A stretch of DNA of 64,000 nucleotides, taken from assembly GCA_040285745.1 (NCBI GenBank), contig JAUFOR010000003.1, positions 124,001 to 188,000 of the forward strand, written 5' to 3'. Numbering within the stretch: position 1 is the first letter of the stretch; each line of letters starts with the position of its first letter. The position numbers were made by a program, and so were the translations under genes. The notes below the pieces were generated by a model, which saw nothing but the letters and a program-made list of their open reading frames with translations, searched no databases and was not told where the DNA came from. Positions 11,563-38,155 of this stretch are shown in pieces. Source of the DNA: Barthelona sp. PCE (lineage: Eukaryota).

Positions 11563-11849
11563 TGGCCCTGATCAGGACGATCCTGTAATTGATTTTGAAT
11601 AGAGAATGGAATAGAACGTATGCGGGTGTATTTCAATTTCTCACCATTTTAAGGTTTCCTATTTATTTTATTGTATTATTTAGTAATTGAAATACTACTT
11701 TTTTTCAGATGTATGGATTTCCAAACTCTGAAGAAGGTACCCGTTTGCGGCACCATATCCGAACGTCAGTGATGAGACTAGGAAAAGAAAATCATCCTTA
11801 TAAACAATAGGAGAAAATGTGTATTCCTATATCTCTGTAGTCATGGAAA
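11563..11849. repeat. Left flank L1 with direct-repeat module (11654-11795)
   Basis: TGATCAGGACGATCCTGTAATTGATTTTGAA through CAGTGATGAGACT is shared with 32624-32928. The inner module GTTTCCTATTTATT...CAGATGTATGGA..TCCAAACT is also at 14300 and 38483. Confidence 0.9.
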
Positions 11850-13970
11850 CTATTCATTATGATAATGCTCATGATAATCGGGCATGTGGTACTCAACGAT
11901 GGACGCCTCGGCCAGGAACGATGGAAGGTGGAACGTTTCCACTGTGGAATTGATCGATTCCGGGTCTTCCTCAATATTGTAAGTTTTCAACACCATTGTC
12001 TTGGTCTCTTCTTCGTATTTCATCTCCTGAATAACGTTGTTAGGCAGATTTGGATCGCGGCTTATATTCACAAAAGTGAAACTATTGTTAGTGAAAAATC
12101 TTGTTTTGATAGCACCATCTTCAACGTATGCTTTAATGATACCACCCCTCACGTGTATGTATGAATCACCCACGAAATTACGTAAATAGTTGCCTTCCCC
12201 CGCTTCATCATCATATGATCTCTTCCAAAGGAGAACAGGCTCTAAGAAGCTTCCTGTTGACCAATCTAAACAGTGTAAATGTTGCGTTGTTGCAGCCCTA
12301 CTGCGTGTACATACAACAAAAAGCTGATGATCAGGTGTTTCAGCCAATGGACGAGGGTTAAAGTAAACATTACATGTATATCCAGGTTTAAAAACAATGT
12401 GCTTTTGAACCTCCACGTTATACCCGTTGACATTGAATTGAAAAAAATGGATTGCTTCATCACATACAATGCATGCTGAATTATCAAAATGTGAACTATG
12501 AACACTTTGAACATGAATATTCGGTGGAAGCTCTAAAATCAGCTCACTTCCCAAATACATCAAGCCTGCACGATCCTCAAGACGGTCAACATTGACAGGC
12601 AACCCTTGAATAAAACCACGGTTTTTAGAGCCACAATGAGGCAAAATGGTTGTGATGGGTTCGGATTCTGAGCCGTCCCAGTGAATTTTGACATATGTAT
12701 TTGTTTCACCATCCTCTACCATTACAAAAAAATCATCTTCTTCATTTGGAACTGATCGGATCTTGTACCTCATACGCGGTTTTTTATACCCACGCAGCAC
12801 AATAAGCTTCCTTTCTTTGAAAAAAAAGTAATATCTTATCGAAGAGTAATTATTATACACTTCCGCTATTCCATCAAAAAAGATGTTAGATGGCTGAAGA
12901 CTGTTCAAACACACAACCTCATTATCAACTGGTTTGAATTTGATTGAGCCAAAACGTCTTCGTCTTCCATAAACACCATAAAAAACACAATCTTCATCAT
13001 AAAAGTAATTATCGTTCAAGTCTATATGTTGCAAGTCATAGCAGAATACATCCCATAAATTCTTTTCACTCTTTGACATATTCAATTCACCGTTTTCGAT
13101 ATGAATTACCACAAATCTTTGTCCAAATTCAATAAGTAACATTGACAAAACATCTTGGGTGAGCGTCAATAATGCAAAATTAGAGTCTCTGTCAACTTTC
13201 AATCCTTTAAGCTGCGGAAACCTTTCTGTCAAGTTAACTTGGTTCCTCTGAGCATCAAATACTATTAGTTCATTAATTCTACTGTGCCTGTGAAAGCTAA
13301 CTAGGCAAGTGCAATCCGAGTTGTAACACCACATGATGCATCTTGAATCAATACTATACAACTGCTCAATATCAAGTTCATGTGCCTCGTCCATGTCATC
13401 AACAGAAAAATTGTAATGCCATATGGTATCATCTTGGCATTTCTTTAACAAAATGTAGTTTGCTTTGATGTTTGATTCAATTAAGTCATACTCTCCAAGA
13501 CATCTATATTCGTCGGTTAGCACATTTAATATGTAGCACTGCCTCATTAGCCTATCGAAATCATTAATGGTGAATAGTAGGTGGTTTTCATCCATCGGAA
13601 TCATTCTACCTAATAGACGTATATTTGGATTGTTCGCAAAAGGGAAGGGTATTCTCCTTCTTGTATGTTCATCACTCATGATATGATCAAATAATAAGAT
13701 ATCAAAATGGGTTACTAAACGATTTTCACGAAGCTCTTCGATGATCATGTAAGATTCTCCAGCTCTTTCCTTGTATGTGTACTTGAGAGGCTCACGCGTA
13801 TTCTCCACGTATCCAACGAAGTCCTTGCCTTCAATAGCGCTTTCAATGAGGCTTATATATTTGTTTTCTCTTGACTTAAGCAATACTACGCCCTTTCCCT
13901 TAAATATCATCTGCCCCTCAGGATAAGCCTGCATGACAAGGTCATCCTCGAATTTACGAACCCTAGGCAT
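11850..13970 (-). CDS. MPRVRK-family hypervariable beta-rich (putative beta-propeller) protein, copy 1
   Basis: 706-aa ORF collinear with copies 2 and 3. No signal peptide or TM segment. The fold is inferred. Confidence 0.85.
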   Translation of the reverse strand: MPRVRKFEDDLVMQAYPEGQMIFKGKGVVLLKSRENKYISLIESAIEGKDFVGYVENTREPLKYTYKERAGESYMIIEELRENRLVTHFDILLFDHIMSDEHTRRRIPFPFANNPNIRLLGRMIPMDENHLLFTINDFDRLMRQCYILNVLTDEYRCLGEYDLIESNIKANYILLKKCQDDTIWHYNFSVDDMDEAHELDIEQLYSIDSRCIMWCYNSDCTCLVSFHRHSRINELIVFDAQRNQVNLTERFPQLKGLKVDRDSNFALLTLTQDVLSMLLIEFGQRFVVIHIENGELNMSKSEKNLWDVFCYDLQHIDLNDNYFYDEDCVFYGVYGRRRRFGSIKFKPVDNEVVCLNSLQPSNIFFDGIAEVYNNYSSIRYYFFFKERKLIVLRGYKKPRMRYKIRSVPNEEDDFFVMVEDGETNTYVKIHWDGSESEPITTILPHCGSKNRGFIQGLPVNVDRLEDRAGLMYLGSELILELPPNIHVQSVHSSHFDNSACIVCDEAIHFFQFNVNGYNVEVQKHIVFKPGYTCNVYFNPRPLAETPDHQLFVVCTRSRAATTQHLHCLDWSTGSFLEPVLLWKRSYDDEAGEGNYLRNFVGDSYIHVRGGIIKAYVEDGAIKTRFFTNNSFTFVNISRDPNLPNNVIQEMKYEEETKTMVLKTYNIEEDPESINSTVETFHLPSFLAEASIVEYHMPDYHEHYHNE

Positions 13971-14450
13971 GAATAGCCGTGATGAAGTAGGTGAATATTA
14001 AGATAGCATGTATATGTTAAATATTAATGATTGTAAGTGGCATATACAAATGATATAATACATGTGAAGCGTAAACAGAAAGCGCAAATGTGAAACAGAA
14101 CTGCATTCGCAATTCTATCCCCTCACACATTTATTGATGTGGTTCACAGGGCTTGTAGCGCGTGACACGTAAGATTTTGGACGCGTGCGGGCATTGTTTT
14201 GATTGTGGGGCACTTTTTAGCTGCGTTGTGGGTGCGGATGCAGATAATATATTTGAGTGTTTTGCAGATGAGCTACAACCCAAATTTTATTCTTTTATGG
14301 TTTCCTATTTATTTTTTGTACTATCAATATTGAAATACTATTAACTTTCAGATGTATGGACTTCCAAACTTAATTCTCTGTAAAGAGTCTGTTTACTCTC
14401 CCTAACTACCCGTTAACATGGATGAGACTCTGGATGAAAATCATGATATA
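13971..14450. repeat. Right flank R1: upstream region plus direct-repeat module (14300-14444)
   Basis: Near-identical to 38156-38637; 14239-14377 equals 38422-38560 exactly (139 nt). Confidence 0.9.
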
Positions 14451-15092
14451 GCTTGAAAAATCTATTTGGAGAAAGTTCATGTACTTACCACTCAGTCTAG
14501 GTCTTTCCATCAAAAATTTGTGAATAAGCTATCTAGAGTGATCGTGTTGCCCCTGGCTGTCTGTTGATGTCTACTGAGAGTAAAGAAGACGAGAAAGAGG
14601 TGGAAAACGTAGATTTACCTCTTTTGAGACTTATAATTTTGTTTATTTTTAAACTATTGTGAGTGTAGGTACGATGTACCTGCGTCCTCAGTAGGCTCGT
14701 CTTCTTCTGAATCCCACTCTGAAACTCAGTAAACACATTAGCAAGTTTTGCTCCTTTGATAGAGTAACATGCACTCGAAGTAAGAATCATAAAAGATAAA
14801 AAATCTTTTGCGTTTTTTCTACCTTATGTAAAATTTTAACCAACCTTATGCATGTCGCAATATAAATGGTTCTCTTTACTGTCTGCACCGAAATTATAGA
14901 CTTACTGTACACAATTTGAATCCCTCCCAAGCAGGTTCAGTTTGTTACTATTCACATCTGTTTAGAGACAAAATTCATTTGTTTAATCGATGAAAAAGCC
15001 ATAATTCGATGCAATAATACGGAAAAAAGCTTGATCTTAGACAATCAATCGATATTTGCTATACATTTTCTTTCCCATCTCAGGTATTTAAA

Positions 15093-17633
15093 ATGAGAAA
15101 CAACCTGGCTTTTACATTTCTATGCGTTTTTGCATGTTCATATGGGTTTTATTATAAAGGGAATGTTGAAATGCATAAATGTGGATTCACTGCAGCTTTA
15201 TCGATCAGTCAACCTTCGTTAGGTCTCAAAAATGTGACACTTGCCCCAGCACTTTCAGCACAGTTGCGTTGCTTAAAGAAAGGAGGTTTTAGATTCGAGG
15301 TCAAAATTCCTGGTGGTTCAGGTCACTCGCTTCCTTCACAAGGTTTTGGAAAGTTTGAGTACACCGATGAGCTTTCTTCCAACCTTAAACTATACGTACA
15401 GAAGTCTCCATTTGGTTTTGAGATCCGTAATGTATATACAAACGATGTTATCTTTGGAACAATGAATGCCTTAGTACCATGGGAGTACGCTGCTGACTCA
15501 TCATATTTCAGCATTCCGACGTACATTCCCGATTTCTCCTATCTTTTTGGTTTTGGTGATCGCAACAATGATCCCCTCTTGAATGAAAAAACGCCTTATC
15601 GCATTTGGTCATACCCTGCCCCTAAAGGTTGCCTGCCTGGTTTGGAGAGCTGTTACTCGGCACATCCAGTAATCCATGTGCTTTCCAAAGATGGGTTCGG
15701 ACGTGTATACTATCAACGTAACTCACATGGTATGCAAGGACGACATCTGCCATCAAAGAACGCGTTTGTGTTCGAGGCACTTGGTGGAGACTTCGATCTA
15801 GTTTTCTTCAGTGGAGCAATGGATGATGCCATCTCCCATTACACAGATTTCATTAGTGAAGGTCAAAATCTTTTACCTCCAATGTTCATGCTCGGTTTCG
15901 GTCAAGCACGCTGGGGGTGGGACTCCACCGATGCCGTGCGTGATCTTGTCAGGGGTTATCGTGGTGCAGACATTCCCTTTGACCATGTTTGGTTCGATAT
16001 TGACTACATGAGCGAATACAAGGACTTTACATTTGGGCCTACATTTACCGATATGCCCAAACTGGCACGTGAACTGCGAGATGAAGACGTTCATCTTGTT
16101 CTTATTGTAGATCCTGGGTTGGCTGCCGATGATAAATACGATTTTTACACCGATTCTTTGGCATCGGGTGGTCTCATCGCAGATCCTGACACTGGAAAGC
16201 CGTACGTTGGCAGCTGTTGGAGCGGTAACAAGACGGTATGGCCGATGTTTGGAGCTGATGAACCATTTCAACCTGTGTGGAAAAAATATTTAAGTGCTCT
16301 GGTACCGTATGTCAGCGGATTTTGGATAGACATGAACGATCCAAGCAACTTTGCAACCAAAAGCAACTTAATTAAGGATTGCAAAGGTGTTGACAAGGTA
16401 ACACCTGCCTGTCCTGCCTTTATGCTCCCCGGTCTTGTCTCCCTCGATCAGTCCACTATCCCAATGCATACTGAAACAACCAAGGGTAGGTTCGACCACG
16501 TGCATAATTTATATGGTCACTATGAGTCTGAAGGAACGCGTACTGCAGTCGAAAGTATCACTGATCGACGTTTCGTAATAACAACCAGAGCTCACTTTTC
16601 AGGCAGCGGTAAGTTCGCCTACAGTTGGCTTGGTGACAACTTTTTGACATACCATGACCTGGAGAAGAGTATTTCTCGTCATTTCATGGCGCAGGTCAAT
16701 GGTGTACGTATGACAGGTCCCGACATAGGTGGCTTCTTCGGCTCTATGGATACACCTGGTAAAACAACACTTGTTGCACGCTGGCTGCAGCTATCCTCGT
16801 TCTATACCATGAGTCGTATGCATAAGGCAAAGATGTTCGATTTCATTCCACCTTATGAAGTACCCTTGTTTACTTCAGTTGCCAAACGTGCTGTGCTGTT
16901 CAAGTACGATCTCTATCCGCTCATATATTCCCAACTGTATCACGGTGAACCTCTATTCTCATTGATGTATACCAGATTCCCCCAGATGTACAAAGTTTTT
17001 GATCAATTGATTTATGCAAATAACCTTATTGTGTGCCCCATTGTTTCTGAATCATCCAAACGTAAATGTTCACTACCAGCTCTTAAGGGAGGTAATCTGA
17101 TTTGGTTTGATTTTTATACCGGAAGTAACGTTGGTGGCGGTGACCTTACAATCTTTAATGATGTTGAGGACCTACCAGCTGCATATATGCCGAGTGGTTC
17201 AATTATGTTATTGCGCAATATGACTGAATTCACGCAGAAAAATCAAGTACATACAATTCGAGACACTATTAAAGCACCTTTTATCATCCGCGGAGCCGCA
17301 CTGCCCCTTAACAATGGTGCAGCGGGCACCAGTCTTGGTGAAGGAGTGTTCCGTGTTGTTTTAGATGCAGCTGAGAAAACCATTGAAAAAGAAAAGGTTC
17401 AAGGCTACATAAACGTTGGTCAAAACGATCTCTCTGTTGTCATGAAACAATGTGATGGTCCATTTTCAGGTAACTATGTAGATAGAATAGAAATAGCTGG
17501 TGTTCCTTTTGCGATCCACGTCATGGTTAATTACAAAGATTACAGTACATTTACACATAATGACGATGGATTCTTGACAATATATTTGCATGAGATGCGT
17601 CTTTGTGACATTTCTCACGTAAGTTGGCACTAG
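15093..17633 (+). CDS. Glycoside hydrolase family 31 alpha-glucosidase, secreted or lysosomal
   Basis: Signal peptide, WFDIDYM, LIVDPG, nucleophile motif WIDMNDPSNF, HNLYG, acid/base motif WLGDN, GPDIGGF. Confidence 0.92.
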   Translation: MRNNLAFTFLCVFACSYGFYYKGNVEMHKCGFTAALSISQPSLGLKNVTLAPALSAQLRCLKKGGFRFEVKIPGGSGHSLPSQGFGKFEYTDELSSNLKLYVQKSPFGFEIRNVYTNDVIFGTMNALVPWEYAADSSYFSIPTYIPDFSYLFGFGDRNNDPLLNEKTPYRIWSYPAPKGCLPGLESCYSAHPVIHVLSKDGFGRVYYQRNSHGMQGRHLPSKNAFVFEALGGDFDLVFFSGAMDDAISHYTDFISEGQNLLPPMFMLGFGQARWGWDSTDAVRDLVRGYRGADIPFDHVWFDIDYMSEYKDFTFGPTFTDMPKLARELRDEDVHLVLIVDPGLAADDKYDFYTDSLASGGLIADPDTGKPYVGSCWSGNKTVWPMFGADEPFQPVWKKYLSALVPYVSGFWIDMNDPSNFATKSNLIKDCKGVDKVTPACPAFMLPGLVSLDQSTIPMHTETTKGRFDHVHNLYGHYESEGTRTAVESITDRRFVITTRAHFSGSGKFAYSWLGDNFLTYHDLEKSISRHFMAQVNGVRMTGPDIGGFFGSMDTPGKTTLVARWLQLSSFYTMSRMHKAKMFDFIPPYEVPLFTSVAKRAVLFKYDLYPLIYSQLYHGEPLFSLMYTRFPQMYKVFDQLIYANNLIVCPIVSESSKRKCSLPALKGGNLIWFDFYTGSNVGGGDLTIFNDVEDLPAAYMPSGSIMLLRNMTEFTQKNQVHTIRDTIKAPFIIRGAALPLNNGAAGTSLGEGVFRVVLDAAEKTIEKEKVQGYINVGQNDLSVVMKQCDGPFSGNYVDRIEIAGVPFAIHVMVNYKDYSTFTHNDDGFLTIYLHEMRLCDISHVSWH

Positions 17634-17638
17634 TAAAA

Positions 17639-18337
17639 TTAAATAGTATTAGTTGTTACGGGAGCGGGACCTTCGACACTACGACGACGACGACGACGAC
17701 GTGCAGGTCTCATTCTTGCTCCTGGGATGATATTGCCGTCTCCATCTCTTGCTACTTGCACCTGCTGCTCCATTGGCATTTGCATTGGAGAATAACTGAT
17801 AGTGCGTTCATTTGATCTCGGACTCATTGCTGGACTCATTGCTGGACTCATCGCTGGGCTCATCGGTGGGCTTCTACTTCTGCTACGACTCCGACTGCGA
17901 CTTAAAATTTCTATTGCTTCATTAGTCATATTGGGCTCATTTCCAACCAAATTTAACAAACCAGGTCCTTCTCCTGAGTTACGACGGGGTCTGATTCTTT
18001 CTCCTGAATTACGAAGAACTGTGCTGGCGAAGCTTGCAGCAGGTGGTGGTGGTACCATAGGCATAGGCGCAGTGACTTCTCCTGAATTACGACGACGACG
18101 ACGACGAGGAGTTGATTCTACGGTTGATTCTATGGTTGTTAACTGTTCTCTTTCAGCCAATTCTCTCAATCTTAAAAGTTCTGCAACACGAGAATCGCTG
18201 TTTGCAAGTTTTTGCTGCAAATCCTTCATCCTTTTTTCTAAAAGTATTTCATTCTTTTGTTTCTCCATTAATTGAGCTTCCAGATCCTCAACTCTTCCTT
18301 CCAGGTAATCTGTTCTATCGTGTGTGACTTTGGGCAT
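17639..18337 (-). CDS. Coiled-coil, Arg/Ser-rich low-complexity protein; probable paralogue of 57497-58150
   Basis: 232 aa with an N-terminal coiled coil, three RNSGE repeats, an SRSRSRSRS tract, SPAM repeats and poly-Arg. Confidence 0.7.
   Translation of the reverse strand: MPKVTHDRTDYLEGRVEDLEAQLMEKQKNEILLEKRMKDLQQKLANSDSRVAELLRLRELAEREQLTTIESTVESTPRRRRRRNSGEVTAPMPMVPPPPAASFASTVLRNSGERIRPRRNSGEGPGLLNLVGNEPNMTNEAIEILSRSRSRSRSRSPPMSPAMSPAMSPAMSPRSNERTISYSPMQMPMEQQVQVARDGDGNIIPGARMRPARRRRRRRSVEGPAPVTTNTI
17820..17867. repeat. 12-bp coding tandem repeat (GGACTCATTGCT-like x4) encoding PMSPAMSPAMSPAMS
   Basis: Directly visible. (ACG)n poly-Arg microsatellites are also present near 17682-17701 and 18090-18107. 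Confidence 0.85.
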
Positions 18338-18374
18338 CTGTTAGAGGTATTTTTTTGTAATTCATCACCATCAC

Positions 18375-18988
18375 CTAACTCGATGAATTGTTCAGGTAAA
18401 ACACCTGTTTTTGAGGCCTAGATGATGTTACACATAACAATTTTACTGTGACTGACTTAGCAAAGAGCAGTGATTCCTTGAAACCTGCATGAAGATAATC
18501 TGGAAGCTTAGTGTAACCCTCTGCAAATGCGATACGGATCATTTCTGAATTCAAAAGTGTTTGTCTTCCTCAGATTCATTCCTAAAATGTGTTTCGACAG
18601 CAGCACAGTTGAGATACGTAATTGCACTTCTAACGCTTCTTGATTCCATTTCCTCTTCTTCAACTTCTGGAGAGACTCTAGGCAGTTTGAGTATTATTGG
18701 AGATAAGTCAAACGCAGTTCGTGAAGCATTTCTACTTCTTAAAGGGTAGATACTTTTAAAAAAAGAAAAATAATTAATAGCCCCCGAATGTGTTTGATTT
18801 TGTTGTAGCTCCAGAGAAAGTGAGATTGTAAGATCAACTGGATCATTGGGTGAATAGTTAAAATGACGCGAATCTTCAAGCACACTTGCGATATAACCAA
18901 CCAAACCCTGAACTTTGTCATCTATTTCTCTTACATTTTCAAAAAAAATGGCTACAGTTCCTAGACCAATTGCACCGAGATATGTTAT
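18375..18988 (-). pseudogene. Possible disrupted gene in two offset coding-like frames
   Basis: One frame reads ITYLGAIGLGTVAIFFENVREIDDKVQGLVGY...EDKHF with no 5' ATG. A second frame continues GRQTLLNSEMIRIAFAEGYTKLPDYLHAGFKESLL to a stop at 18375. Confidence 0.3.
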
Positions 18989-19110
18989 CTACAGAGTTCT
19001 CTTTATCATAATTCATTATTGAAGGGAGGAAACTGTGGTACAAAACTACTTTCGAAGATCCTCATGAGTGGCTGATTTAATGTTATCACATTATTACATA
19101 ATTACATTTA

Positions 19111-20472: not shown

Positions 20473-20874
20473 TTCTAAATCTTAACCAAAAAAGCTGAAA
20501 GAGGATGATAACAAAAAGACAGCTTGAAGCGATGGTGAGCTTTTTCCGGCTGCTGGACATGGAAAGTCGTACACTGCCTAACAAACGGCCAATATGAGCC
20601 CTAAAAATTTATTGTAAAACAAAACTAAAATTCATGAACTTGTTGAGCTTCACGGAAAGCGAAATTTCCATCTTTGACACACACAATATTTGAAGAGCAC
20701 GGGAGGCTGCGTTGCAGGCAGCACACAGCGCGAACCTGGTGTTATCAGACGTGCACGAATGCGTGCGCACGAGAAACACCGAAAACATGAACTATTCACC
20801 AATATTTACTTTTTCACATTTGAATTTTGAACAAAGTAAAGTAATTGTGTGTTTATTAAGTGATCGCGATCCGC

Positions 20875-23571
20875 TTAAAGGTAGCGGAGGGTGGGAGAAA
20901 TCTCGTTCCACTTCTCCTCGTTGTAGCAAGCCTTGACGATGGTCTTGAAGTGCTCAAAGTTGGGAGTGATGGGGTTGGCACCAGTGCACTGATCATCGTA
21001 CATGTACTCGGCAAGACCGCTATCGAGGTCTTCGCAGAGCTGCTCGAAAGAAGGAACACCGCGACAGTCCTCGAGGTAGAGAGGAATGTCGATGCTGGTG
21101 ATGAGCTTACGGGTCTCTTCGACGAGCTTGTAAACGAGCTCTTCGTCGGAACCGGAGTGACCCATGTAGCGCATAACCTCGGCGTAACGCTCTTGAGCAA
21201 CGGGCTTGGTGTATTGAGGGAAGCAACCCATCTTGCTAGGCTTGGGGTTGGAGTTGTACAGGACGACGGCAGGGAACATGACGGCGTTGGCGAGACCGTG
21301 AGGTACGTGGTACTTCTGACCCAATTTGTGTGCGATGGAGTGGTTGATACCAAGGAAGGCGTTGGCGAAAGCCATACCAGCAATGGTAGCGGCGTGGTGC
21401 ATGTTCTCACGAGCAAGCTGGGTACCTTGGTGGACGGATTCGTGCAGGTTATCAAAGACCATCTTGACGGCGCGGAGCGCAAGAGGGGATGTGAAATCTG
21501 TGGCAAGAATGGAAACGAGGGCCTCGGTGGCGTGTGTGAGGGCGTCCATACCTGTGCAAGCGGAGAGGAACTTGGGAAGAGTCATACAGAACTGTGCGTC
21601 AGTGATGGCGACGGTGGGGGTCATGGCGTAATCGGCAAGAGGGTACTTAACCTCAACACCGTTCTCCTCAGCAGTGATGACAGCGAAGGGGGTAACTTCG
21701 GAACCAGTACCAGAAGTGGTAGCGATAGCGACGAAGTCGGTCTTGTTCATGGTAGGGAAGTGGAAGATACGCTTACGGATATCCAAGAAACGGAGAGCGA
21801 GATCCTCGAACTTGAGTTCGGGGTGCTCGTAGTAGAGACGCATGACCTTGGCAGCATCGAGAGGGGAACCACCACCGAGAGCGATGAAGACGTCGGGCTG
21901 GAAGGAGCGGATCTGGGTGAGGGCACGCTCGATGGTGCTGTACTTTGGATCGGGCTCGACATCCATGAAGATCTGGTACTGAATACCGTACTTGTCAAGC
22001 TCGTCGGTGACCTTATCGCAGTAACCGAAGTTGAAGAGGAACTTATCGGTGATGATGAATGCCTTCTTATAGTCCTTGAAGTCGGTCATGGCAATGGGGA
22101 GACAGCCGTACTTGAAGTAGACACGGGGAGGAGCGCGGAACCAGAGCATGTTCTCACGACGCATGGCGACGGTCTTGACGTTAACAAGAGACATGGGTCC
22201 GACGTTCTCGGAAGTGGAGGAACCACCCCAGGTACCGACACCGAGAGTGAGGGAAGGAGGGAGTGAGAAGTTCCAGAGATCACCAATGGCACCCTGGGAA
22301 GCGGGGGAGTTCATAATGATACGGCCGGTCTTGAGGGCTTCACCGAACTTCATGATCTTTTCGGTTTCAGTGGGCTCGACGTAGAGGACGGATGTGTGAC
22401 CGATACCGCCACGGCTGACGTAGTCCTCGGCCATAGCGAGACCAGTGTCAAAGTCGGGGCAGCTGTAGAGACCGAGAGTGGGGGAGAGCTTCTCGTGGGA
22501 GAAGGCCTCGGCATCGCAGATGTCGGTGCACTCGGCAACAAGGACGCGGGTGGTGACGGGAACATCGACACCAGCCATAGTAGCAATGGTGTGGGCGGTC
22601 TGGCCAACAACAGCAGCGTTAAGGGCTCCGTTGGGCTTGATGATGACGGCGGCAACCTTGGCCTTTTCCTCTTCGTTGAGAACGACGGCACCACGCTTGA
22701 TGAACTCGGTCTTGCACTTCTCGTACAGGCTCTCGTGGATGATCATGGACTGCTCGGAGGCGCAAACGACACCATTGTCGAATGTCTTGGACATAATGAC
22801 GTAATTAACGGCCATTTCGTAGTCGGCGGTCTCGTCGACCAAGACGGGGGTGTTACCGGCACCAACAACGACACTGGGGACCTCAGAGATGTTGACGGCC
22901 TGAAGCATGGCGGGACCACCGGTTGCCATTGTGTATGCAATGCGCTTCGAGTTGATGACGCAGGAGGTGAGCTCGAGGCTGGGCTTGGTGGTGCAAGCGA
23001 CAATCGCGGTGAACTCGGGTGCAACCTCTGTGATGGCGGCCTGAATGCAACGAACGGATTCAGCAGCAATCTTGTGGCATCGGGGATGCTGGGCGATAAA
23101 ACATGAGTTACGTGTCAAAATGCACAGAAGAGCCTTGAACGCAATGGTGGAGACAACGTTAGTGCATGGCGTGATGCATGCGACAATGCCGTGGGGAGAA
23201 TAAAATTTTTGGATTCCCATGGCTTCGTTAAACTCGCTGGGACTGCAGTAGTCTTCGTGAATATACTTTGAGGTCACGTTCTCTACTCCAAAGCTAATCT
23301 TCACACATTTGTCAATAGCATTGCCCATATAACCTTCATCGACAGTTGCCTGAGCGAAATAAACTCGCTTTTCCATGATTCTCTTGGCGACGTTGCTTGC
23401 GATGCGGCGTACATCCTCCACCTTGAGCTTGGAAAAGGCTTCTCTTTGAGTTTCCATGATGTCGAGAACAGCATTGAACTGTTCAGGGGTTTCGACGGGC
23501 ATTTGAGAAATATCGGGTAACTTAAGGTTAGGCTGGTTGTTCCAATGTGATACACATACAGTTGATGTCAT
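20875..23571 (-). CDS. adhE: Bifunctional acetaldehyde/alcohol dehydrogenase AdhE
   Basis: ALDH domain ATGGPAM, GAGNTP, catalytic SKTFDNGVVCASEQS and HEKLSP; linker SLTLGVGTWGGSSTSENV; Fe-ADH domain GGGSPLDAAK, TTSGTGSEVT, DALTH, HSIAH and PHG. Strong GC3 bias. Confidence 0.96.
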   Translation of the reverse strand: MTSTVCVSHWNNQPNLKLPDISQMPVETPEQFNAVLDIMETQREAFSKLKVEDVRRIASNVAKRIMEKRVYFAQATVDEGYMGNAIDKCVKISFGVENVTSKYIHEDYCSPSEFNEAMGIQKFYSPHGIVACITPCTNVVSTIAFKALLCILTRNSCFIAQHPRCHKIAAESVRCIQAAITEVAPEFTAIVACTTKPSLELTSCVINSKRIAYTMATGGPAMLQAVNISEVPSVVVGAGNTPVLVDETADYEMAVNYVIMSKTFDNGVVCASEQSMIIHESLYEKCKTEFIKRGAVVLNEEEKAKVAAVIIKPNGALNAAVVGQTAHTIATMAGVDVPVTTRVLVAECTDICDAEAFSHEKLSPTLGLYSCPDFDTGLAMAEDYVSRGGIGHTSVLYVEPTETEKIMKFGEALKTGRIIMNSPASQGAIGDLWNFSLPPSLTLGVGTWGGSSTSENVGPMSLVNVKTVAMRRENMLWFRAPPRVYFKYGCLPIAMTDFKDYKKAFIITDKFLFNFGYCDKVTDELDKYGIQYQIFMDVEPDPKYSTIERALTQIRSFQPDVFIALGGGSPLDAAKVMRLYYEHPELKFEDLALRFLDIRKRIFHFPTMNKTDFVAIATTSGTGSEVTPFAVITAEENGVEVKYPLADYAMTPTVAITDAQFCMTLPKFLSACTGMDALTHATEALVSILATDFTSPLALRAVKMVFDNLHESVHQGTQLARENMHHAATIAGMAFANAFLGINHSIAHKLGQKYHVPHGLANAVMFPAVVLYNSNPKPSKMGCFPQYTKPVAQERYAEVMRYMGHSGSDEELVYKLVEETRKLITSIDIPLYLEDCRGVPSFEQLCEDLDSGLAEYMYDDQCTGANPITPNFEHFKTIVKACYNEEKWNEISPTLRYL

Positions 23572-24000: not shown

Positions 24001-24066
24001 GTAAAGAATCTGTTTACTCTCTTTTATTATTACTGAACAGTGATGAGAGACTATGAAAGAAAATCA
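24001..24066. repeat. Solo fragment of the cassette direct repeat
   Basis: 24001-24048 matches 32835-32882 at 46 of 48 nt. It is followed by GACTATGAAAGAAAATCA, resembling 11776-11794. Confidence 0.85.
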
Positions 24067-24084
24067 ACATGGTAGAATATCAGT

Positions 24085-26847: not shown

Positions 26848-27108
26848 TGTGTAAGGTGAAAACGATATAACGCTTTTAGTTCAACTTTACCAAGCAATTC
26901 AGTACTTAAAGCTTTTACACAGCTCTATAACCATATAATGTACCACAAAAACATCGTAAACCAACAAAACACTCATAACACTACTGACGACTTAATCAAT
27001 AAGAAACGAGTACAATTGTGGTTCTCTCTAGTAAAAATCTATTCTGTCCAAATGAAAAGAACTTAGAACAGAAAGAAAATTTGTTTTGCTTTTTGACACC
27101 CATTTCTA

Positions 27109-29842: not shown

Positions 29843-30027
29843 ATCTTTAGTGGCGTGAAGTCCGGCTTAATGTAAGTAAAAGGAAAATATTCTTGAAAAT
29901 ATTCTTAAAAATCCAACATACTTTTGCTTAATGGCGTTCTGGACAGAGGACTGGACATTATATTGTACAAATTATGCAAATAAACTTGCAAGAAAGGTTA
30001 AAATACGTTATACAATTTTTATTATCA

Positions 30028-30945: not shown

Positions 30946-31366
30946 TATCAATGTCTTAAAGCCCTAAAAATTGTAAGGAGTGATATAATGTAAAACAAAG
31001 CTGAACTTATGATATCTCTTTTTCAATTGTTTAAAGTTTTCTAAACAACGATTTTCTACAAAATTTTTGAGAAAAAAACGATGAACAAGTACCTAAACAA
31101 AACCTGCACTTTTTCAGCCAATTCTTCTTTCAATATTGATATTGTCGCGGCAAAAAAGGATTTTAGAACACATATATAGTTGTTCTCAGAACTGAATTTG
31201 CTATTGCATTATTCATTAGTAATTAAAAATTAATCGCCAAGTCTGCACAATATGGCTTCCCAAACTATTTCAAACATTATAGAACCTACCACCATACAAC
31301 AAAGCAATCACCATATTAGCATTAGAAGAAACCAGACCGATTTCAAATAAAATCCCCAATTCAACA

Positions 31367-32596
31367 ATGGATTATATGTTCGGCATTCCAACAAAGCTCT
31401 TTATTGGGCCTAGTTCCACAAAATCTGTAATTTCTTTCATTCCTGAAGGATCCAAAATCCTACTCGTCTTTGGTGGTGGATCAATTATGCGTAATGGTTG
31501 CTATGATGACATCATCGAACTCACAAACGAGCGCAACATCGAGCTTATCGAACACGGAGGTTGTCCTCCTAACCCTACCGTTCAATTTATGAGAGAAGGT
31601 GCGAAGAAGTGCCTTGAGAACAATTGTGGTGGAATTCTCGCCGTCGGTGGAGGCTCTTGTGCTGATGCTAGTAAGGCAATGATCGGTCAATGCCAGTTGG
31701 CAAAGGAAGACAGTGAAAAAGACATCTGGGATGATTATTATGTTACAAGATTACCTGCACCTGAGAAGACAGAAAACACCCTCCCACTATACATCATTGA
31801 AACAATCAGTGGAACAGCGTCACTCCACAACCATGGAAGTGTGCTATCCGATCCTAGTATTAACAAAAAGGTGTCGACCAGAACTTTAGCCTGGTACGCA
31901 CAAGCTTCTGGTGTCGATCCAAAGTACCAGCTCACTGTTTCCCGTTACCAGCGTGAGTGCACCATTTTTGACATCTTTGCTCATTCGTTTGAGTGTATCG
32001 TCATGATAGCACACATGCCAAGCGTGCCTCAGTCAGGCTTCTATCATCTAATTGGGCTCCAGAAGGGCCTCTTCTCGGCTCTAGATAGATACCACAGCAC
32101 TGATAACGAACAGGAGCTCTTAAATATTCATGCTGAGCTTGCGTATCTGGCTGCATTTGCCCTCAACTTCAGCGCTTACCCTCAGGTTTTCTCAGGTCTT
32201 AATCATCTTTTGGGACATGGATGTACCGCGTATGACTCACTTGTTGATGGCAAGACAGTTAATATGACTCATGGAGCCTCTTTAATTCAAACAATGCCCG
32301 CTGTTATCCATCTATTTGATAAATATTATCCTGAGGTGGACGGATTCGTTAAATACGGAAAGGAACTGTTTGGTGATGAGGTTGAGACCTCTGCAGATTT
32401 CCTAAGATTCTATTTTGATAAGGTTACGACAACCATTGTTGAGAAGAATTTCACAGAGTTTTTCAAGGGTGAAGTTCCTGCCGACTTCATTCCTTTCCTT
32501 GTCGATCACTATTTTGATCATGCCCCCGGTGGTCTGGGTATGGGTAAAATTCCCACTCGTGAGGAAATCACCGAGGCTCTTCAACTCTGCCTCTAG
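31367..32596 (+). CDS. Iron-containing alcohol dehydrogenase, BdhA/YqhD-like
   Basis: PTKLFIG, LLVFGGGSIMRNG, PNP, AVGGGSCADASK, and metal ligands DIFAH, NHLLGH and THG. Confidence 0.9.
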   Translation: MDYMFGIPTKLFIGPSSTKSVISFIPEGSKILLVFGGGSIMRNGCYDDIIELTNERNIELIEHGGCPPNPTVQFMREGAKKCLENNCGGILAVGGGSCADASKAMIGQCQLAKEDSEKDIWDDYYVTRLPAPEKTENTLPLYIIETISGTASLHNHGSVLSDPSINKKVSTRTLAWYAQASGVDPKYQLTVSRYQRECTIFDIFAHSFECIVMIAHMPSVPQSGFYHLIGLQKGLFSALDRYHSTDNEQELLNIHAELAYLAAFALNFSAYPQVFSGLNHLLGHGCTAYDSLVDGKTVNMTHGASLIQTMPAVIHLFDKYYPEVDGFVKYGKELFGDEVETSADFLRFYFDKVTTTIVEKNFTEFFKGEVPADFIPFLVDHYFDHAPGGLGMGKIPTREEITEALQLCL

Positions 32597-32623
32597 TTCA
32601 AAAAATGTGCAAAATAAATTTAA

Positions 32624-32928
32624 TGGTCTTGATCAGGACGATCCTGTAATTGATTTTGAACAGAGAATGGAATAGAACGTATGCGGGTGTATTTTGATTT
32701 CTCACCATTTACAGTTTCCTATTTATTTTATTGTATTATTAGTAATTGAAATACTACTATTTTTCAGATATATGGACTTCCAAACTCTGAAGAAGGTAGC
32801 CCGTATGCGGCACCATATCCGAACTTAGATCTCTGTAAAGAATCTGTTTACTGTCTTTTATTATTAGTGAACAGTGATGAGACTTGGAACATCCTTACAA
32901 ACAATAGGAGTCTCTGTAGTCATGGAAA
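32624..32928. repeat. Left flank L2 with the most complete direct-repeat module
   Basis: Matches 11563-11849 and contains segments shared with 14300-14444, 38483-38631 and 24001-24048. Confidence 0.9.
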
Positions 32929-32941
32929 CTATTCATTATGA
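32681..32941 (+). other. Putative two-exon 68-aa ORF inside the repeat (exons 32681-32713 and 32768-32941; GT-AG intron 32714-32767)
   Basis: Removing the AT-rich GTTTCC...TTTTCAG segment, which has an in-frame TGA, gives MRVYFDFSPFTIYGLPNSEEGSPYAAPYPNLDLCKESVYCLLLLVNSDETWNILTNNRSLCSHGNYSL. Confidence 0.35.
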
Positions 32942-35064
32942 TAATGCTCATGATAATCGGGCATGTGGTACTCAACGATGGACGCCTCGGCCAGGAACGA
33001 TGGAAGGTGGAACGTTTCCACTGTGGGATTCATCGATTCCGGGTCTTCCTCAATATTGTAAGTTTTCAGCACCATTGTCTTGGTCTCTTCTTCGTATGAC
33101 ATGTCTTGAACAGTGTTATTGGGCAGATTTGGATCGTGGCTTATGTTCAATTCATATGGTAAACTGTCGTTTATGTAAAAATGCGTTTCAATTGCACCAT
33201 CTTCAACGTATACTTTAATGATACCACCCCTCACCTGTATGTATGAATCTCCCACGAAATTACGGAAACTGTGACCTTCCTCAATTTTTTCATTCTTATT
33301 ATTCTGATAAAGGTGAACAGGCTCTAAGAATCTTCCTGTTGACCAATCTAAACAGTGTAAATGTTGCGTTGTTGCAACCCTACTGTGTGTACATACAACA
33401 AACAGCTGATGATCAGGTGTTTCAGCCAATGGACGAGGGTTGAAGTAAACATCATATAAATATTCATGTTCAAAAATAATGTGCTTTTGAACCTCCACGT
33501 CATACCCGTTGACATTAAGTTGAAAGAAATGGGTTGCTTCAATACATACAATGCACGCTGAATTATCAAAATGTGAACCATGAACACTTAGAACATAAAA
33601 ATTCGGTGGAAGATCCAAAATCATCTTTTCTCCCAAATACACCAACCCTGCACGATTCTCAAGGTCAACATTTAAAGGCAACCCTTGAATAAAACCATAG
33701 TTTTCTGAACCACAATGAGGCAAAATGGTTGTGATTGGCTTAAATTCTGAGCCGTTCCAGCATAATTTGACATATGTAGTTACTACTTCACTACGTACCT
33801 TTGCCATTACAAAAAATTCATCTCCTTCATTTGGATGAACTGATCGGATCTCGCAGCTCGTATGTGAAAACGGTTTCCTACACCCACGCAGCACAATAAG
33901 CTTCCTTTCTTTGAAAAAAAAGTAACATCTTATTGAAGCGTTATGACCATACACTTCCGTTATTCCATCAAAAAAAATGCGGTTTGGTTGAAGACTGTTC
34001 AACCAAAACACCTCATTATCAACTGTTCTGAATTTGATTAGGCCACAACGTCCTGTTATTTTATCAACACTATAAAAAACACAATCTTCATCATGAAAGT
34101 AATTATCGTTCAAGTCTATATGCTTCCAGCCATCGCAAATTACGTTCTTAAAATTCAGTTTACCCTCTGACATCTTCAATTCACCGTTTTCGATATGAAC
34201 TACCACACATCTTGAATAAATGAATATCATTGACAATACATTCTGAGTGAGCGTTAATAATGAAAAACTCGAGTATCTGTTAATATTCAATCCTTTAAGC
34301 TGTGGAAACCTTTCTGTTAAATTAACGCGGTTCCTCTGACAGTCAAATATTATTAGTTCATCAATTTCTTGATCGCGAAAGCTAACTAGGCAAATGCAAT
34401 CCGAGTTCAAACACCACATGATGATGATGTATCCTGAATAGATTCCATGTAACTGCTCAATATCAGGTTCATGTGCCTCGTCCATGTCATCAACAGAAAA
34501 ATTGTAATGCCATGTGGTATCATCTTGGCATTTCCTTAACATAATGTAGTTTGAATTGATGTTTGATTCAATTAAGTCATACTCTCCAAGACATCTATAT
34601 TCGTCGGTTAGCGCACTTAATATGTAGCACAGAATCACTTGCCTGTTATTAACGGTTTCATCAATGGTTAATAGTAGGTGGTTTTCATCCATCGGAATTA
34701 TATCTATTACCAAGAATTTGGTCAAGCACAATGGAAATGGTATTCTCCTTCTTATATGCTCATCGCTCATGATATGATCAAATAATAAGATATCAAGATG
34801 GGTTATAATACCACTGTCATCACTAATCATATCGATGATCATATAAGATTCTCCAGCTTTTAATTTGGATGTGTATTGAAGAGGCTTACGCGTATCCTCC
34901 ACATATCCAACAAAGTCCTTGTCTTCAATAGCGCTTTCAATGAGGCTGATTTCGGTGATTTCTCTTGAATTAATCAATGCTACGCCCTCTCCCTCAAATA
35001 TCAGCTGCCCCTCGGGATATGCCCTGATGATAAGGTCGTCCTCGAACTTTCGAACCCTAGGCAT
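32929..35064 (-). CDS. MPRVRK-family protein, copy 2
   Basis: 711 aa, collinear with copies 1 and 3, with the same C-terminus as copy 1. Confidence 0.85.
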   Translation of the reverse strand: MPRVRKFEDDLIIRAYPEGQLIFEGEGVALINSREITEISLIESAIEDKDFVGYVEDTRKPLQYTSKLKAGESYMIIDMISDDSGIITHLDILLFDHIMSDEHIRRRIPFPLCLTKFLVIDIIPMDENHLLLTIDETVNNRQVILCYILSALTDEYRCLGEYDLIESNINSNYIMLRKCQDDTTWHYNFSVDDMDEAHEPDIEQLHGIYSGYIIIMWCLNSDCICLVSFRDQEIDELIIFDCQRNRVNLTERFPQLKGLNINRYSSFSLLTLTQNVLSMIFIYSRCVVVHIENGELKMSEGKLNFKNVICDGWKHIDLNDNYFHDEDCVFYSVDKITGRCGLIKFRTVDNEVFWLNSLQPNRIFFDGITEVYGHNASIRCYFFFKERKLIVLRGCRKPFSHTSCEIRSVHPNEGDEFFVMAKVRSEVVTTYVKLCWNGSEFKPITTILPHCGSENYGFIQGLPLNVDLENRAGLVYLGEKMILDLPPNFYVLSVHGSHFDNSACIVCIEATHFFQLNVNGYDVEVQKHIIFEHEYLYDVYFNPRPLAETPDHQLFVVCTHSRVATTQHLHCLDWSTGRFLEPVHLYQNNKNEKIEEGHSFRNFVGDSYIQVRGGIIKVYVEDGAIETHFYINDSLPYELNISHDPNLPNNTVQDMSYEEETKTMVLKTYNIEEDPESMNPTVETFHLPSFLAEASIVEYHMPDYHEHYHNE

Positions 35065-35129
35065 ATGGATGTGGTGAGAATTCCGGAAACAATGAACAAA
35101 TTTTCATAACCTCTTTCAGCTCGAAATTT

Positions 35130-35641
35130 ATGAGCAGAAATGCATCGAAAGCACGAAAAATCGCGGATATAGCCCGGGAGGCGCCCAATTACGCTTCAAA
35201 ATGCACGTTCAAACACGTTCATATCTTGCTCTCCCCTTCTGACGGCGGTGCGTGGAAAGTTACCCTGCACTCGAGCACAGGGGGCACGTTCATCGACACG
35301 CAGCTCAACAACGACGTGTCATCACTCATCAACGAAACAAATCCTGAAAAGATCTTGTTGTCGTGTACGGAGCCATCGGTATCGTCAACAATAGCAACAG
35401 AGATGGATTGTGCGAGACGCACTTTGTTACTTTCACATACAACAATGATGGTATTGAAATTCTGAACCGTGTCGTTGTTCCGGAAGTTTACACTCACATG
35501 TGCGTGTATGACAGGAATCTGGGCATCATCAGTGCTAACCAAAACGTCATAACCACTTACATAGTACTTAACGACGGATCGCTCGTGAACAGAACCGAGC
35601 ACCATCTTCCGTTTCCGATTATATGTGGAGTATTCCCATAA
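35130..35641 (+). pseudogene. Frameshifted ~170-aa beta-rich ORF, head-to-head with copy 2
   Basis: ORFs 35130-35465 and 35363-35641 join if one base is added in the A-run at 35347-35350, giving ...NETNPEKDLVVVYGAIGIV. CpG-rich compared with its flanks. Confidence 0.45.
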
Positions 35642-36025
35642 GCCAATTGAAAGTGAAAGTGGTGTTGATTATGATTATTTTTTGAAATGTACTGAGGATT
35701 GTGAAAAAGGGACATTATATTCATTTTTTATATTTTTCATATTGGCTTTAGTTGTTATTTTTTTACTAGCATTAAACAGATCAAATAAATTGGAACCTTA
35801 GGCATGTGAAAAATTGAACTACATTTGTTATTCTATTTTTTGTTTACTTTTACCAATTGTACTTGCGGAAATATGTCATTAGGTGTTGCCTGTCAGAAGC
35901 AGAAATGAATTATGCTGGATTAACAAATTTTGTTTCATTATTACAACAAGTATGGCGTCTTCAACATAAAAGTGTGTCTGTTTTTATGCTAAGGTACTGA
36001 GCTATTCATTATTCATCTGGGCATG

Positions 36026-38155
36026 TTAATCTGGCATATGGTACTCAAAGATGGATGCTTCGGCCATGAAAGATGGAAGGTGAAACCTTTCTACAGTGGG
36101 ATTCATCGATTCCGGGTCTTCCTCAACGTTGTATGTTTTCAACACCATTGTCTTGGTCTCTTCTTCGTATGACATGTCTTGAATAACGTTGTTAGGCAGA
36201 TTTGGATCGTTGCTTATCCTCATGTTAGAAGAATATGGTAAATTGTTGTTTGTAAAAAAATGCGTTTTAATTGCACCATCTTTAACGTATGCTTTAATGA
36301 TACCACCCACTACGTGTATGTATGAATCACCCACGAAATTACAGAAACTGTGGCCTTCTTCCACGATGTAATAATTGTCCGAATCATATTCTGATTCTTG
36401 GTAATGATAGTCTTCCCACGATTCATCAAAATCCCCATAATAAAGGAGAACAGGCTCTAAGAAGCTTCCTGTTGACCAATCAAGACAATGCAAATATTCC
36501 ACTTCAAGACCTTTATCATCTTCACGTATAACAAATAGCTGATGATCAGGTGTTTCAGCCAATAGACGAGGGTTAAAGTAAACATTACATGTATATCCAG
36601 GTTTAAAAACAATGTGCTTTTGAACCTCCACGTTATACCCGTTGACATTGAATTGAAAAAAATGGATTGCTTCATCACATACAATGCACGCTGAATTATC
36701 AAAATGTGAACCATTGACACTTATGACTCTAATATTCGGGGGAAGATCCAAAATCAGCTTACTTCCCAAATAAACCAAGCCTGTACGATCTTCAAGACGT
36801 TCAACATTGACAGGCAACCCTTGAATAAAACCACAGTTTTCAGTACCACAATGAGGCAAAATAGTTGTGATGGGTTCGGGTTCTGAGTCGTTCCAACGTA
36901 ATTTGACATATGTAGTACCTGTTTCACTAATTACATCTGCCAATACAAAAAAATCATCTCCTTCATTTGGTTGAACTGATTGGATCTTGTAGCGCATACG
37001 TGAAAACAGTTTCCATAGCCCATGCAGCACAATAAGCTTCCTTTCTTTATAAAAAAAGTAGTATCTTATCAAAGAGTCGACATATATCTCCGCTATTCCA
37101 TCAAAAATGATGCTAGTTGGCTGAAGACTTTTTAAACACATAACCTCATTGATAGTCTCTCTGAATTTGATTGGGCCATAACGTTTTGTTCTTCTATCAA
37201 CACCATAAAAAACACAATCTTCATGATGAAAGGAATTATCGTTCAAGTCTATATGTTGCAAGTCATTGCAGAGTACATTCGAAAAATTCTTTTCACCCTC
37301 TGACATCTTCAATTCGCCGTTTTCGATATGAATCACCCTGATAACTGAATCAATTAATACCATTGACAAAACATTTTGAGTGAGCGTTAATAATGCAAAA
37401 TTAAAGTTTTTGCCAACAATCAATCCTTTAAGCTGTGGAAATCTTTCTGTTAAGTTAACTTGGTTCCTCCGACAGTCAAATATTATTAGTTCATCAATTT
37501 CTTTATCACGAAACCTGACTGAGAAAATGCAATCCGAGTTTAAGCACCCGAAGTGTTCTAAATGAACACCACCATGAAACTGCTCAATATCAGGTTCATG
37601 TGCCTCGTCCATGTCATCAACAGAAAAATTGTAATGCCATGTGGTATCATCTTGGTATTTCTTTAACAAAATGTAGTTTGAATTAATAGTCAAATGAGAG
37701 TTATAATTTCCAATACATCTATATTCCTCAGTTATAACATTTAATATGTAGCATCTATGGATATATCTGTCATTAACGATTTCCCCAATGGTGAATAGTA
37801 GATGGTTTTCATCCATCGGAATTATTCTTGTAAGATCTCTTAAGCTGTTCATCTCAAATGGGAAGGGTATTCTTCTTCTTGTATGTTCATCACTCATGAT
37901 ATGATCAAATAATAAGATATGCTGTTTGATGATCATGTGAGATTCTCCTGCTCTAAGCTTAGATGTGTACTGAAAAGGCTCATCTGTACTCCCCACATAC
38001 CCAACAAAGCCCTTGCCTTCAATAGCGCTTTCAATGAGGCTGATATCTTTTTCTCTTGATTGAAGCAACCTTAGACCCTGGCCCTCAAATATCAGTTGGC
38101 CCTCGGGATATGCCTTGATGACAAGGTCTTCCTCCAATTTACGAACCCTAGGCAT
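36026..38155 (-). CDS. MPRVRK-family protein, copy 3
   Basis: Homology places the start at ATG 38155 (MPRVRKLEED). It ends at a TAA eight codons before the homologous TAG. Confidence 0.85.
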   Translation of the reverse strand: MPRVRKLEEDLVIKAYPEGQLIFEGQGLRLLQSREKDISLIESAIEGKGFVGYVGSTDEPFQYTSKLRAGESHMIIKQHILLFDHIMSDEHTRRRIPFPFEMNSLRDLTRIIPMDENHLLFTIGEIVNDRYIHRCYILNVITEEYRCIGNYNSHLTINSNYILLKKYQDDTTWHYNFSVDDMDEAHEPDIEQFHGGVHLEHFGCLNSDCIFSVRFRDKEIDELIIFDCRRNQVNLTERFPQLKGLIVGKNFNFALLTLTQNVLSMVLIDSVIRVIHIENGELKMSEGEKNFSNVLCNDLQHIDLNDNSFHHEDCVFYGVDRRTKRYGPIKFRETINEVMCLKSLQPTSIIFDGIAEIYVDSLIRYYFFYKERKLIVLHGLWKLFSRMRYKIQSVQPNEGDDFFVLADVISETGTTYVKLRWNDSEPEPITTILPHCGTENCGFIQGLPVNVERLEDRTGLVYLGSKLILDLPPNIRVISVNGSHFDNSACIVCDEAIHFFQFNVNGYNVEVQKHIVFKPGYTCNVYFNPRLLAETPDHQLFVIREDDKGLEVEYLHCLDWSTGSFLEPVLLYYGDFDESWEDYHYQESEYDSDNYYIVEEGHSFCNFVGDSYIHVVGGIIKAYVKDGAIKTHFFTNNNLPYSSNMRISNDPNLPNNVIQDMSYEEETKTMVLKTYNVEEDPESMNPTVERFHLPSFMAEASIFEYHMPD

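Follow-up and report, generated by a model that had tools for sequence, protein, structure and literature searches.

We analysed a 64,000-nt stretch of the Barthelona sp. PCE genome (contig JAUFOR010000003.1, positions 124,001 to 188,000; hereafter the window, to whose positions plain coordinates refer) and found that three genes on its minus strand are mosaics of segments shared with other members of a large gene family. The genes of this family are intronless and encode a predicted soluble double beta-propeller of ~700 aa. The mosaicism is real, and the three window copies are a sample of a larger pattern. Our preferred explanation, which we hold to be somewhat better than an even bet, is that segmental gene conversion across the whole genome would feed a repertoire of intracellular binding proteins. 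The two parts of this explanation carry different confidence: the exchange mechanism is highly probable, and for a function in recognition the chances appear evenly balanced.

Copy 1 (11850..13970) is a 706-aa open reading frame (ORF) of subfamily A, a double beta-propeller according to the ORF listing, the structure model and propeller matches at Z 10-12. Copy 2 (32929..35064, 711 aa) shares 97% identity with a sister at G000:C4:1406405 (G000 being the window genome and C4 one of its contigs) but differs from it in the 5′ flank and in 3′ patches. Copy 3 (36026..38155, 709 aa) lies in tandem with copy 2, upstream of it. All three genes and the tracts and flanks described below are on the minus strand, and DNA identity among the copies is 81-84%. 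The initial annotation had reported four blocks of identity that switch partners among these copies, and all four proved to be exact (124/124, 57/57, 116/116 and 78/78). The switching itself was also borne out: 443 informative sites fell into 222 runs, compared with 293 ± 10 runs when shuffled, and none of 10,000 shuffles gave a number as low.

The four blocks differ in what they say about exchange. The 124-nt tract (12350..12473 in copy 1, 36565..36688 in copy 3) spans two variable loops at residues ~500-540 and is exact for copies 1 and 3 only among the 60 family copies; the next-nearest copy differs at 10 columns, copy 2 diverges at 16, as the initial annotation had it, and two alleles are private to copies 1 and 3. 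Of the four blocks, this one is the strongest as evidence of exchange. The 116-nt tract across the stop codon (11832..11947 in copy 1, 32911-33026 in copy 2) is likewise exact for copies 1 and 2 only among the 60. The 57-nt tract (13465..13521 in copy 1, 34556-34612 in copy 2) is identical between the two as claimed, but it is not specific to that pair: it is a common haplotype, also exact in a C4 copy and with one mismatch in two more. The 78-nt block (34451..34528 in copy 2, 37578-37655 in copy 3, also found in a C4 copy) is conserved in all three window copies, with two differing sites in copy 1 and a family median of three, and therefore carries little information, as had been noted. Across subfamily A, the longest exact match reached at least 124 nt in 5.7% of 703 pairs and at least 57 nt in 58%, so that such patches are the norm in the family.

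We identified at least 60 family loci in the window genome (10.2 Mb, eight contigs). The genome search gave 65 matches, from 63 of 87 candidates scored, that merged into 60 loci; this is a lower bound, and a profile search gave further distant members. The 60 loci comprise 38 copies of subfamily A (>75% identity to copy 1), 11 of subfamily B and 11 divergent copies, with coding spans that total ~1.2% of the genome. Among 45 protein matches, 42 had an NCBI label, and all 42 were labelled Barthelona sp. PCE, as were all 10 that were looked up among the 20 matches of the profile search. No relative outside Barthelona sp. PCE was found in metagenome contigs, viral contigs, long proteins or the sequences of solved structures, and matches in the Atlas (at most 0.90) were propeller-like leads only. 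The family thus appears, on these sequence comparisons, to be lineage-specific. According to the genome paper (PMC11316075), the organism is an anaerobic metamonad that lives freely and feeds on bacteria, and no smaller genome has been reported for a free-living eukaryote. We found no description of the family in the literature covered, which included the text and searchable supplements of that paper and stopped short of subscription papers and preprint supplements.

Recombination was tested on a codon alignment of the 28 intact subfamily A copies; nine broken copies and one without a start were dropped, and the 11 divergent copies also stood outside the alignments. The pairwise homoplasy index (PHI) test gave z = -33 for the 28 copies (817 sites) and z = -5.1 for their synonymous sites only (131 sites), z = -13 for 10 subfamily B copies, and z of about -6 for the non-coding 5′ flank of 22 copies. 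The mosaic pattern runs through 258 nt 5′ of the start codon, and because this non-coding flank is mosaic too, convergent selection on the protein is excluded as the cause. The ratio of near to far incompatibilities was 0.73-0.74, compared with 1.01 ± 0.02 in 20 clonal simulations made without recombination and with the real rate of each site held in place. Pairs of less than 90% identity contained an identical run of at least 100 nt in 8.9% of 372 cases, against at most 0.3% in the clonal simulations. No single tree holds along the gene, in keeping with the sliding-window check that had been proposed: the trees of six segments shared 0-2 of 25 splits, compared with 10-19 in four clonal simulations. 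Approximately unbiased tests favour each segment's own tree by construction, and we therefore placed the weight on the simulated control.

Linkage (r2) fell from 0.35 at 1-3 nt to 0.09 at 21-40 nt and 0.065 at 61-100 nt; the floor was 0.037, and linkage is thus near background by ~100 nt in subfamily A. After two near-identical sister copies had been dropped, copies that shared one variable loop shared the next in 29 of 280 cases, where 3% would be expected if loops were independent, and each variable loop had 10-26 alleles among 26 copies. Neighbouring variable loops re-assort almost freely. Taken with the PHI tests, the simulations, the segment trees and the donors traced in sister pairs, these results carry the proposal of segmental exchange well beyond the three copies of the window.

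Comparison of sister pairs allowed donors to be traced. Between copy 2 and its C4 sister there are 66 differing columns, grouped in 10 clusters; at 44 of these columns both alleles lie within exact matches of at least 25 nt to other copies. Differences could be traced to third copies at 99 of 144 positions in a second subfamily A pair and at 39 of 45 in a subfamily B pair; tracing was weaker in the other three pairs (40/105 and 39/69, and 11/112 in one B pair). Within copy 2, a 517-nt run (34530..35046, coding sequence [CDS] 19-535) is identical to the C4 sister, a 218-nt patch (33032..33249, CDS 1816-2033) is exact with G000:C5:753544 where the sister differs, and the 3′ end is exact with copy 1. 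Copy 1 can be tiled from 14 different sole donors and copy 3 from 15. The exchange partners are thus mostly not the neighbours within the window, which corrects the initial annotation; donors lie on other contigs, and the nearest relative of copy 2 is the C4 copy. Nine pairs less than 30 kb apart had a median longest match of 91 nt, compared with 60-62 nt for 694 other pairs, and their identity was no higher; proximity has a weak effect at most.

In one B copy the final ~450 nt are of A type, and in two divergent copies the first 150 nt and the 5′ flank are. Exchange thus crosses ~60% identity at conserved gene ends, sometimes between subfamilies. These cases fit the suggestion that constant blocks serve as recombination anchors, which fared better at the gene ends of distant copies than inside subfamily A. 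There, r2 was only weakly correlated with the conservation of the intervening sequence (Spearman rho -0.03 to -0.11, with pairs non-independent), and anchors may therefore need only short local identity. Because the patches are short and sit in unchanged flanks, we infer gene conversion as the form of exchange.

None of copies 1-3 gave a Pfam match. A structure model built with 54 sequences had a predicted local distance difference test score (pLDDT) of 85.7 and a predicted template modelling score of 0.72; a first, weak model (pLDDT 70) was set aside. The best structural match was a beta-propeller (Z 12.3, root-mean-square deviation 5.4, 292 aligned, residues 357-680), and the N-terminal part (residues 48-355) also matched a propeller, at Z 10.0. 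The model thus predicts two beta-propellers with no specific relative. It is all propeller, and no long fused form was found among long proteins, which is weak evidence. The genes contain no tandem repeat and no internal self-match. A simple hydropathy scan (not SignalP) found no signal peptide, membrane helix or glycosylphosphatidylinositol (GPI)-like tail in any of seven proteins: the best 19-residue mean at the N-terminus was at most 0.67 in all seven, compared with 1.13 for a secreted control, the membrane-helix scan peaked at 1.2-1.6, and the C-terminus is acidic and hydrophilic.

Sequence entropy alternates over 53 consecutive inter-strand connections (lag 1 -0.47, p = 0.0001; lag 2 +0.54). 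By the strand order of the model, variation and length changes fall on every second inter-strand loop, and the structure model and loop-wise entropy together agree with the earlier view that it is loops that vary. When loops of the C-terminal propeller were assigned by strict alternation, the ratio of non-synonymous to synonymous change (dN/dS, or omega) was 0.79 (0.60-1.02) for variable loops and 0.35 (0.25-0.50) for the others; for recent changes, omega was 0.80 and 0.33, respectively. Length variants occurred in 17 of 23 variable loops and 3 of 24 others, on lists set after the entropies had been seen. The overall dN/dS of the family is 0.56. The non-variable loops are under purifying selection; the variable loops thus evolve either close to neutrality or as a mixture of sites under selection and sites under constraint. 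In four-stranded propeller blades, alternate loops lie on one face, and on the model the variable ones probably make up a single face of each propeller.

The flanks of the window copies disagree in their grouping as had been described, the 5′ flank joining copies 1 and 3 and the 3′ flank joining copies 1 and 2. Copy 1 has a 5′ flank of type U1 (13971..14443), whose proximal part is common to 26 other copies and itself mosaic, and copy 3 shares this type (38156..38630); the 5′ flank of copy 2 is of a second upstream type, U2, unlike the other two. The 3′ flank shared by copies 1 and 2 and the outer 5′ flank shared by copies 1 and 3 are pieces of one dispersed repeat of 277 nt, for which we found 46 matches. 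The conflict between the flanks is thus partly explained by shared promoter types and pieces of a retrotransposon repeat. Copy 1 is bracketed by a diverged piece at the outer end of its 5′ flank (14293..14443, repeat positions 1-193, terminus included) and a piece on its 3′ side (11563..11764, positions 75-277, 97%, with the other terminus). The unit of copies 3 and 2 has a piece at its outer 5′ end (38476..38630, positions 1-193) and a near-whole repeat at its outer 3′ end (32624..32889, positions 9-277, 93%). Pieces of this kind lie within 1.4 kb of 22 of the 60 copies, and seven units (eight genes), among them copy 1 and the pair of copies 3 and 2, are bracketed by direct pieces that start at a repeat terminus. 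By eye we saw no target-site duplication at the junctions of repeats and cassettes, and no poly-A tails were found at cassette ends.

The 277-nt repeat comes from an element that has an A1-ORF1-ORF2-B1A2B2 layout and a reverse transcriptase, and represents its solo A-B repeat. The parent element (L157, G000:C8:777538-783623) has split direct repeats of 110 nt and 130 nt that are 100% identical, and its reverse transcriptase matches RVT_1 at E 1.9e-13. This layout is like that of the Ngaro elements of Cafeteria burkhardae, which have A1-[ORFs]-B1A2B2 split direct repeats, a reverse transcriptase and dispersed solo AB repeats; unlike them, the Barthelona pieces bracket host genes as putative cassettes, and carriage of host genes is not described in the parts of that report that we draw on (PMC8547959). 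Pfam gave no tyrosine recombinase match in the parent element or genome-wide, and in sister elements recombinase matches (E 0.002 and 0.006) fell short of the cut-off. By eye, the Ngaro-like element has a motif that we take to be recombinase-like; together with the sub-threshold matches, this suggests a recombinase. Other sources of the flank repeat were considered and dropped. A Helitron gave no PF14214 (RepHel) match, with the control also silent, and was replaced by the Ngaro-like parent; a TnpB/IS605-type element (no TnpB match) and a retrozyme or small RNA (no Rfam match) were set aside once the parent had been found.

Several Ngaro-like families with split direct repeats occur in the genome (L157-L166, L168), some with copies >99% identical (recently active), and many solo repeats are nested in one another between genes. 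Two tandem arrays with a 1.4-1.6-kb period (L092, L093) carry a 72-74% relative of the solo repeat in each unit, and a tRNA gene stands beside one of them. In the window, a short solo repeat fragment (24001-24066, 79%) lies just upstream of an AdhE-like gene.

Family copies are concentrated near contig ends. Twenty of the 60 lie within 25 kb of an end, where 2.3 would be expected, 16 of these 20 point inward, and 10 of 16 contig ends have a family copy in the last 10 kb. The C4 end shows a (GACCATATA)n repeat followed by a 2.1-kb spacer and then a subfamily A gene, and the same spacer occurs at several other ends, often behind a telomere-linked reverse transcriptase element. A telomere-like repeat is present at 2 of 16 ends only, and breaks in the assembly may therefore account for some of the ends. 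The spacer between copies 3 and 2 (35065..36025), made up of the 3′ flank of copy 3 and a U2 5′ flank, matches in both parts (81-96%) the spacers of tandem pairs near contig ends. This likeness suggests that the internal pair derives from a near-end tandem array.

The telomere-linked element is non-LTR-like, with an ORF of 1560 aa, and forms arrays at several ends (L105 at the C8 end, L100, L101, L104, L106, L110) that are 96-99% identical and lie between the telomeric repeat and the propeller gene; it resembles the telomeric retroelements of Giardia. The terminal repeat at the C4 (L102) and C8 (L105) ends has a 9-nt period (GACCATATA). The genome paper prints a 10-nt telomere unit for Barthelona sp. 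PCE (PMC11316075), and that unit gave no match in our search of the genome.

Patches of tens to a few hundred bases are exchanged with partners anywhere in the genome, and we propose that the route is homology-directed break repair with a paralog as template, i.e., ectopic gene conversion. Conversion would keep the scaffold alike and spread loop variants; the variable face may bind changing targets (viral, retroelement or bacterial proteins), and the constant face and the termini may bind a shared partner. More tentatively, internal copies between Ngaro-like repeats may have moved as cassettes, with solo repeats acting as landing pads for homology-directed copying or with the help of the retroelement's enzymes. 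Rad51-family, MutS and Ku genes are present in the genome; we rejected loss of mismatch repair or of end joining as the cause of the high exchange because MutS and Ku are among them. A second Rad51-family gene (L172, G000:C4:1280655-1281311) lies ~1.2 kb from a family copy; taken together with two weaker MutS matches, it may point to a set of genes for meiosis.

Several observations weigh against the reading of a repertoire fed by gene conversion. The PHI test on synonymous sites of subfamily B was not significant (p = 0.12, 61 sites), and no ORF of 690 aa is left in nine of the 38 A copies and in one of the 11 B copies. The omega of 0.80 for recent changes in variable loops does not differ from 1 (p = 0.22), and in a site test of low power, with saturation, none of 483 gap-free codons exceeded the neutral allele count after correction. 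Loops were assigned to faces from strand order (DSSP) and not from model coordinates, and the lists of 23 and 24 loops were drawn up once entropies were known. The data come from a single genome and give no direction, rate or non-reciprocity of transfer. The main rival, which we consider rather unlikely, accepts the same conversion as a by-product: a subtelomeric repeat family would undergo ordinary concerted evolution, with tolerant outer loops and no selected repertoire. It accommodates a variable-loop omega of 0.8-1.0 that never exceeds 1, the site test that no codon passes and the breakage of about a fifth of A and B copies, and a position next to telomeric and Ngaro-like retroelements would promote passive amplification. 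Tolerance alone, however, leaves it unexplained that only every second loop varies while long loops of the other class are near constant. The skew of length variants toward variable loops, on lists set after the data were seen, also speaks against it, as does the retention of ~1.2% of a 10.2-Mb genome at the overall dN/dS given above.

The remaining alternatives concern how the mosaics arose or what they encode. Reverse transcription would be one route, with co-copied transcripts recombining by template switching (through the Ngaro-like or the telomeric reverse transcriptase) and the cDNA then inserting or converting copies. The 24 reverse transcriptase matches in the genome, the bracketed units and nearby Ngaro-like pieces and the lack of introns would all suit this route, but the mosaic pattern also takes in the 258 nt before the start codon, it is likewise seen in subfamily B and in copies that lack such repeats, and cassette ends show neither poly-A tails nor target duplications; we regard it as improbable. 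Chimeras made in assembly or polishing, in which reads of one paralog overwrote another, are more improbable still, although the evidence is indirect and does not exclude them directly. The patches are in part as long as short reads, frameshifts occur in several near-end copies, and contig ends break inside the family, so that copies may be missing. Against this, distances to the nearest copy per 60-nt window are graded smoothly from 0 upward (0 differences in 24%, 1 in 14%, 2 in 13%, 3 in 12% and 4 in 10% of 924 windows), as tracts of many ages, and not exact overwrites, would give. The copies are moreover 75-85% alike and mostly in unique flanks, frame is kept across multi-codon indels, and linkage decay is family-wide, in every copy. 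Equally remote is a system of surface antigens like var or the variant surface glycoproteins (VSG), in which a single copy would be expressed and the rest kept as a silent archive. The subtelomeric position and inward orientation of copies, their distinct types of 5′ flank, VSG-like patch sizes and some broken copies recall such a system, but the proteins have no hydrophobic N-terminus or membrane helix and an acidic, hydrophilic C-terminus, most copies are intact with their own 5′ flank, and the organism is free-living.

The analogy to var and VSG mosaics drawn in the initial annotation therefore holds in part: patch size and subtelomeric position fit, and the product of this free-living organism does not, since without signal peptide, membrane helix or GPI-like tail it is not a surface antigen of that type. 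As in Trypanosoma brucei VSG, short templated patches would come from members genome-wide, with ~20% mismatch tolerated and a subtelomeric archive, and VSG patches are reported to average 55 bp and to stay <300 bp (PMC13233330). In contrast to VSG, the Barthelona family is not known to have an expression site, its genomic copies carry the patches in fixed form, and there is no host antibody pressure. Plasmodium var genes number ~60, occupy subtelomeric and internal sites, have upstream types and form chimeras by ectopic recombination, and the same is seen here; the Barthelona protein, unlike theirs, is not a membrane protein, has an unrelated fold and no intron, and belongs to a free-living host. 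The RHS family of Trypanosoma cruzi, an unrelated protein likened here by description only, is reportedly large, of unknown function and linked to retrotransposons, with members that recombine.

In product and pattern, the closest known system is the HNWD/NWD WD40 proteins of Podospora anserina (het-d, het-e), which are intracellular, have two propellers and exchange segments between loci, with selected positions reported on the d-a and b-c loops (PMC1805685, PMC12222747). There, as may be the case here, the d-a and b-c loops vary on one face over a homogenised scaffold, with the reservation that the Barthelona strand register comes from DSSP and not from coordinates. Unlike HNWD proteins, the Barthelona copies have no NACHT or HET domain and no WD40 Pfam match, number at least 60 genes against ~10, show a loop omega of 0.8-1.0 and have no site that passes a test for positive selection. 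Because no blade is a repeat of another, exchange occurs at matching positions of entire paralogs. Without NACHT and internal repeats, the family is not a member of HNWD. The ingredients are known; what is new is their combination in a protist that is free-living and has a reduced genome, and on a protein that appears to be intracellular.

The window also encodes two short coiled-coil ORFs (17639-18337 and 57497-58150) that resemble each other at the N-terminus and may be paralogs, a bifunctional aldehyde/alcohol dehydrogenase, the AdhE-like gene (20875-23571), and a separate iron alcohol dehydrogenase (31367-32596). Anaerobic protists typically have such dehydrogenases, which often stem from bacteria. 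Elsewhere, solo repeats are frequent neighbours of a further multicopy family, whose parts are propeller-like, kinase, HECT-like and IBR (L072, L087, L097, L090, L076, L084, L085). At L090, positions 1746-2508 (G000:C6:189245-190007) carry a subtelomeric-type 5′ flank and the first 224 nt of a family gene directly before a propeller-kinase gene, and a public gene model links the two via an intron; L089 has a comparable, frameshifted family fragment of 457 nt. This second family is a candidate for a second repertoire or a signalling partner.

The usual explanation for mosaic subtelomeric repertoires is that host antibodies put pressure on the surface of a parasite. Here, a relative of Giardia-like parasites that is itself free-living has the same architecture, and the protein concerned looks to be intracellular. 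Should the loops be under selection, the family would offer a testable case of innate recognition in a protist, and the toolkit of antigenic variation may not need parasitism; if the loops are only tolerant, it would be a clean example of very dense ectopic exchange. The retrotransposon-bracketed cassettes would be a concrete and testable route by which such genes spread. An extended version, which we think unlikely and offer as speculation, is anticipatory intracellular recognition in a bacterivorous protist: a subtelomeric archive of stand-alone double propellers would be recombined nearly loop by loop, with Ngaro-like repeats as landing pads or vehicles for whole cassettes, under selection by viruses, retroelements or ingested bacteria, possibly feeding the propeller-kinase-HECT-IBR proteins. 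If that were true, Barthelona would apply the contingency genetics of parasites to cytosolic receptors.

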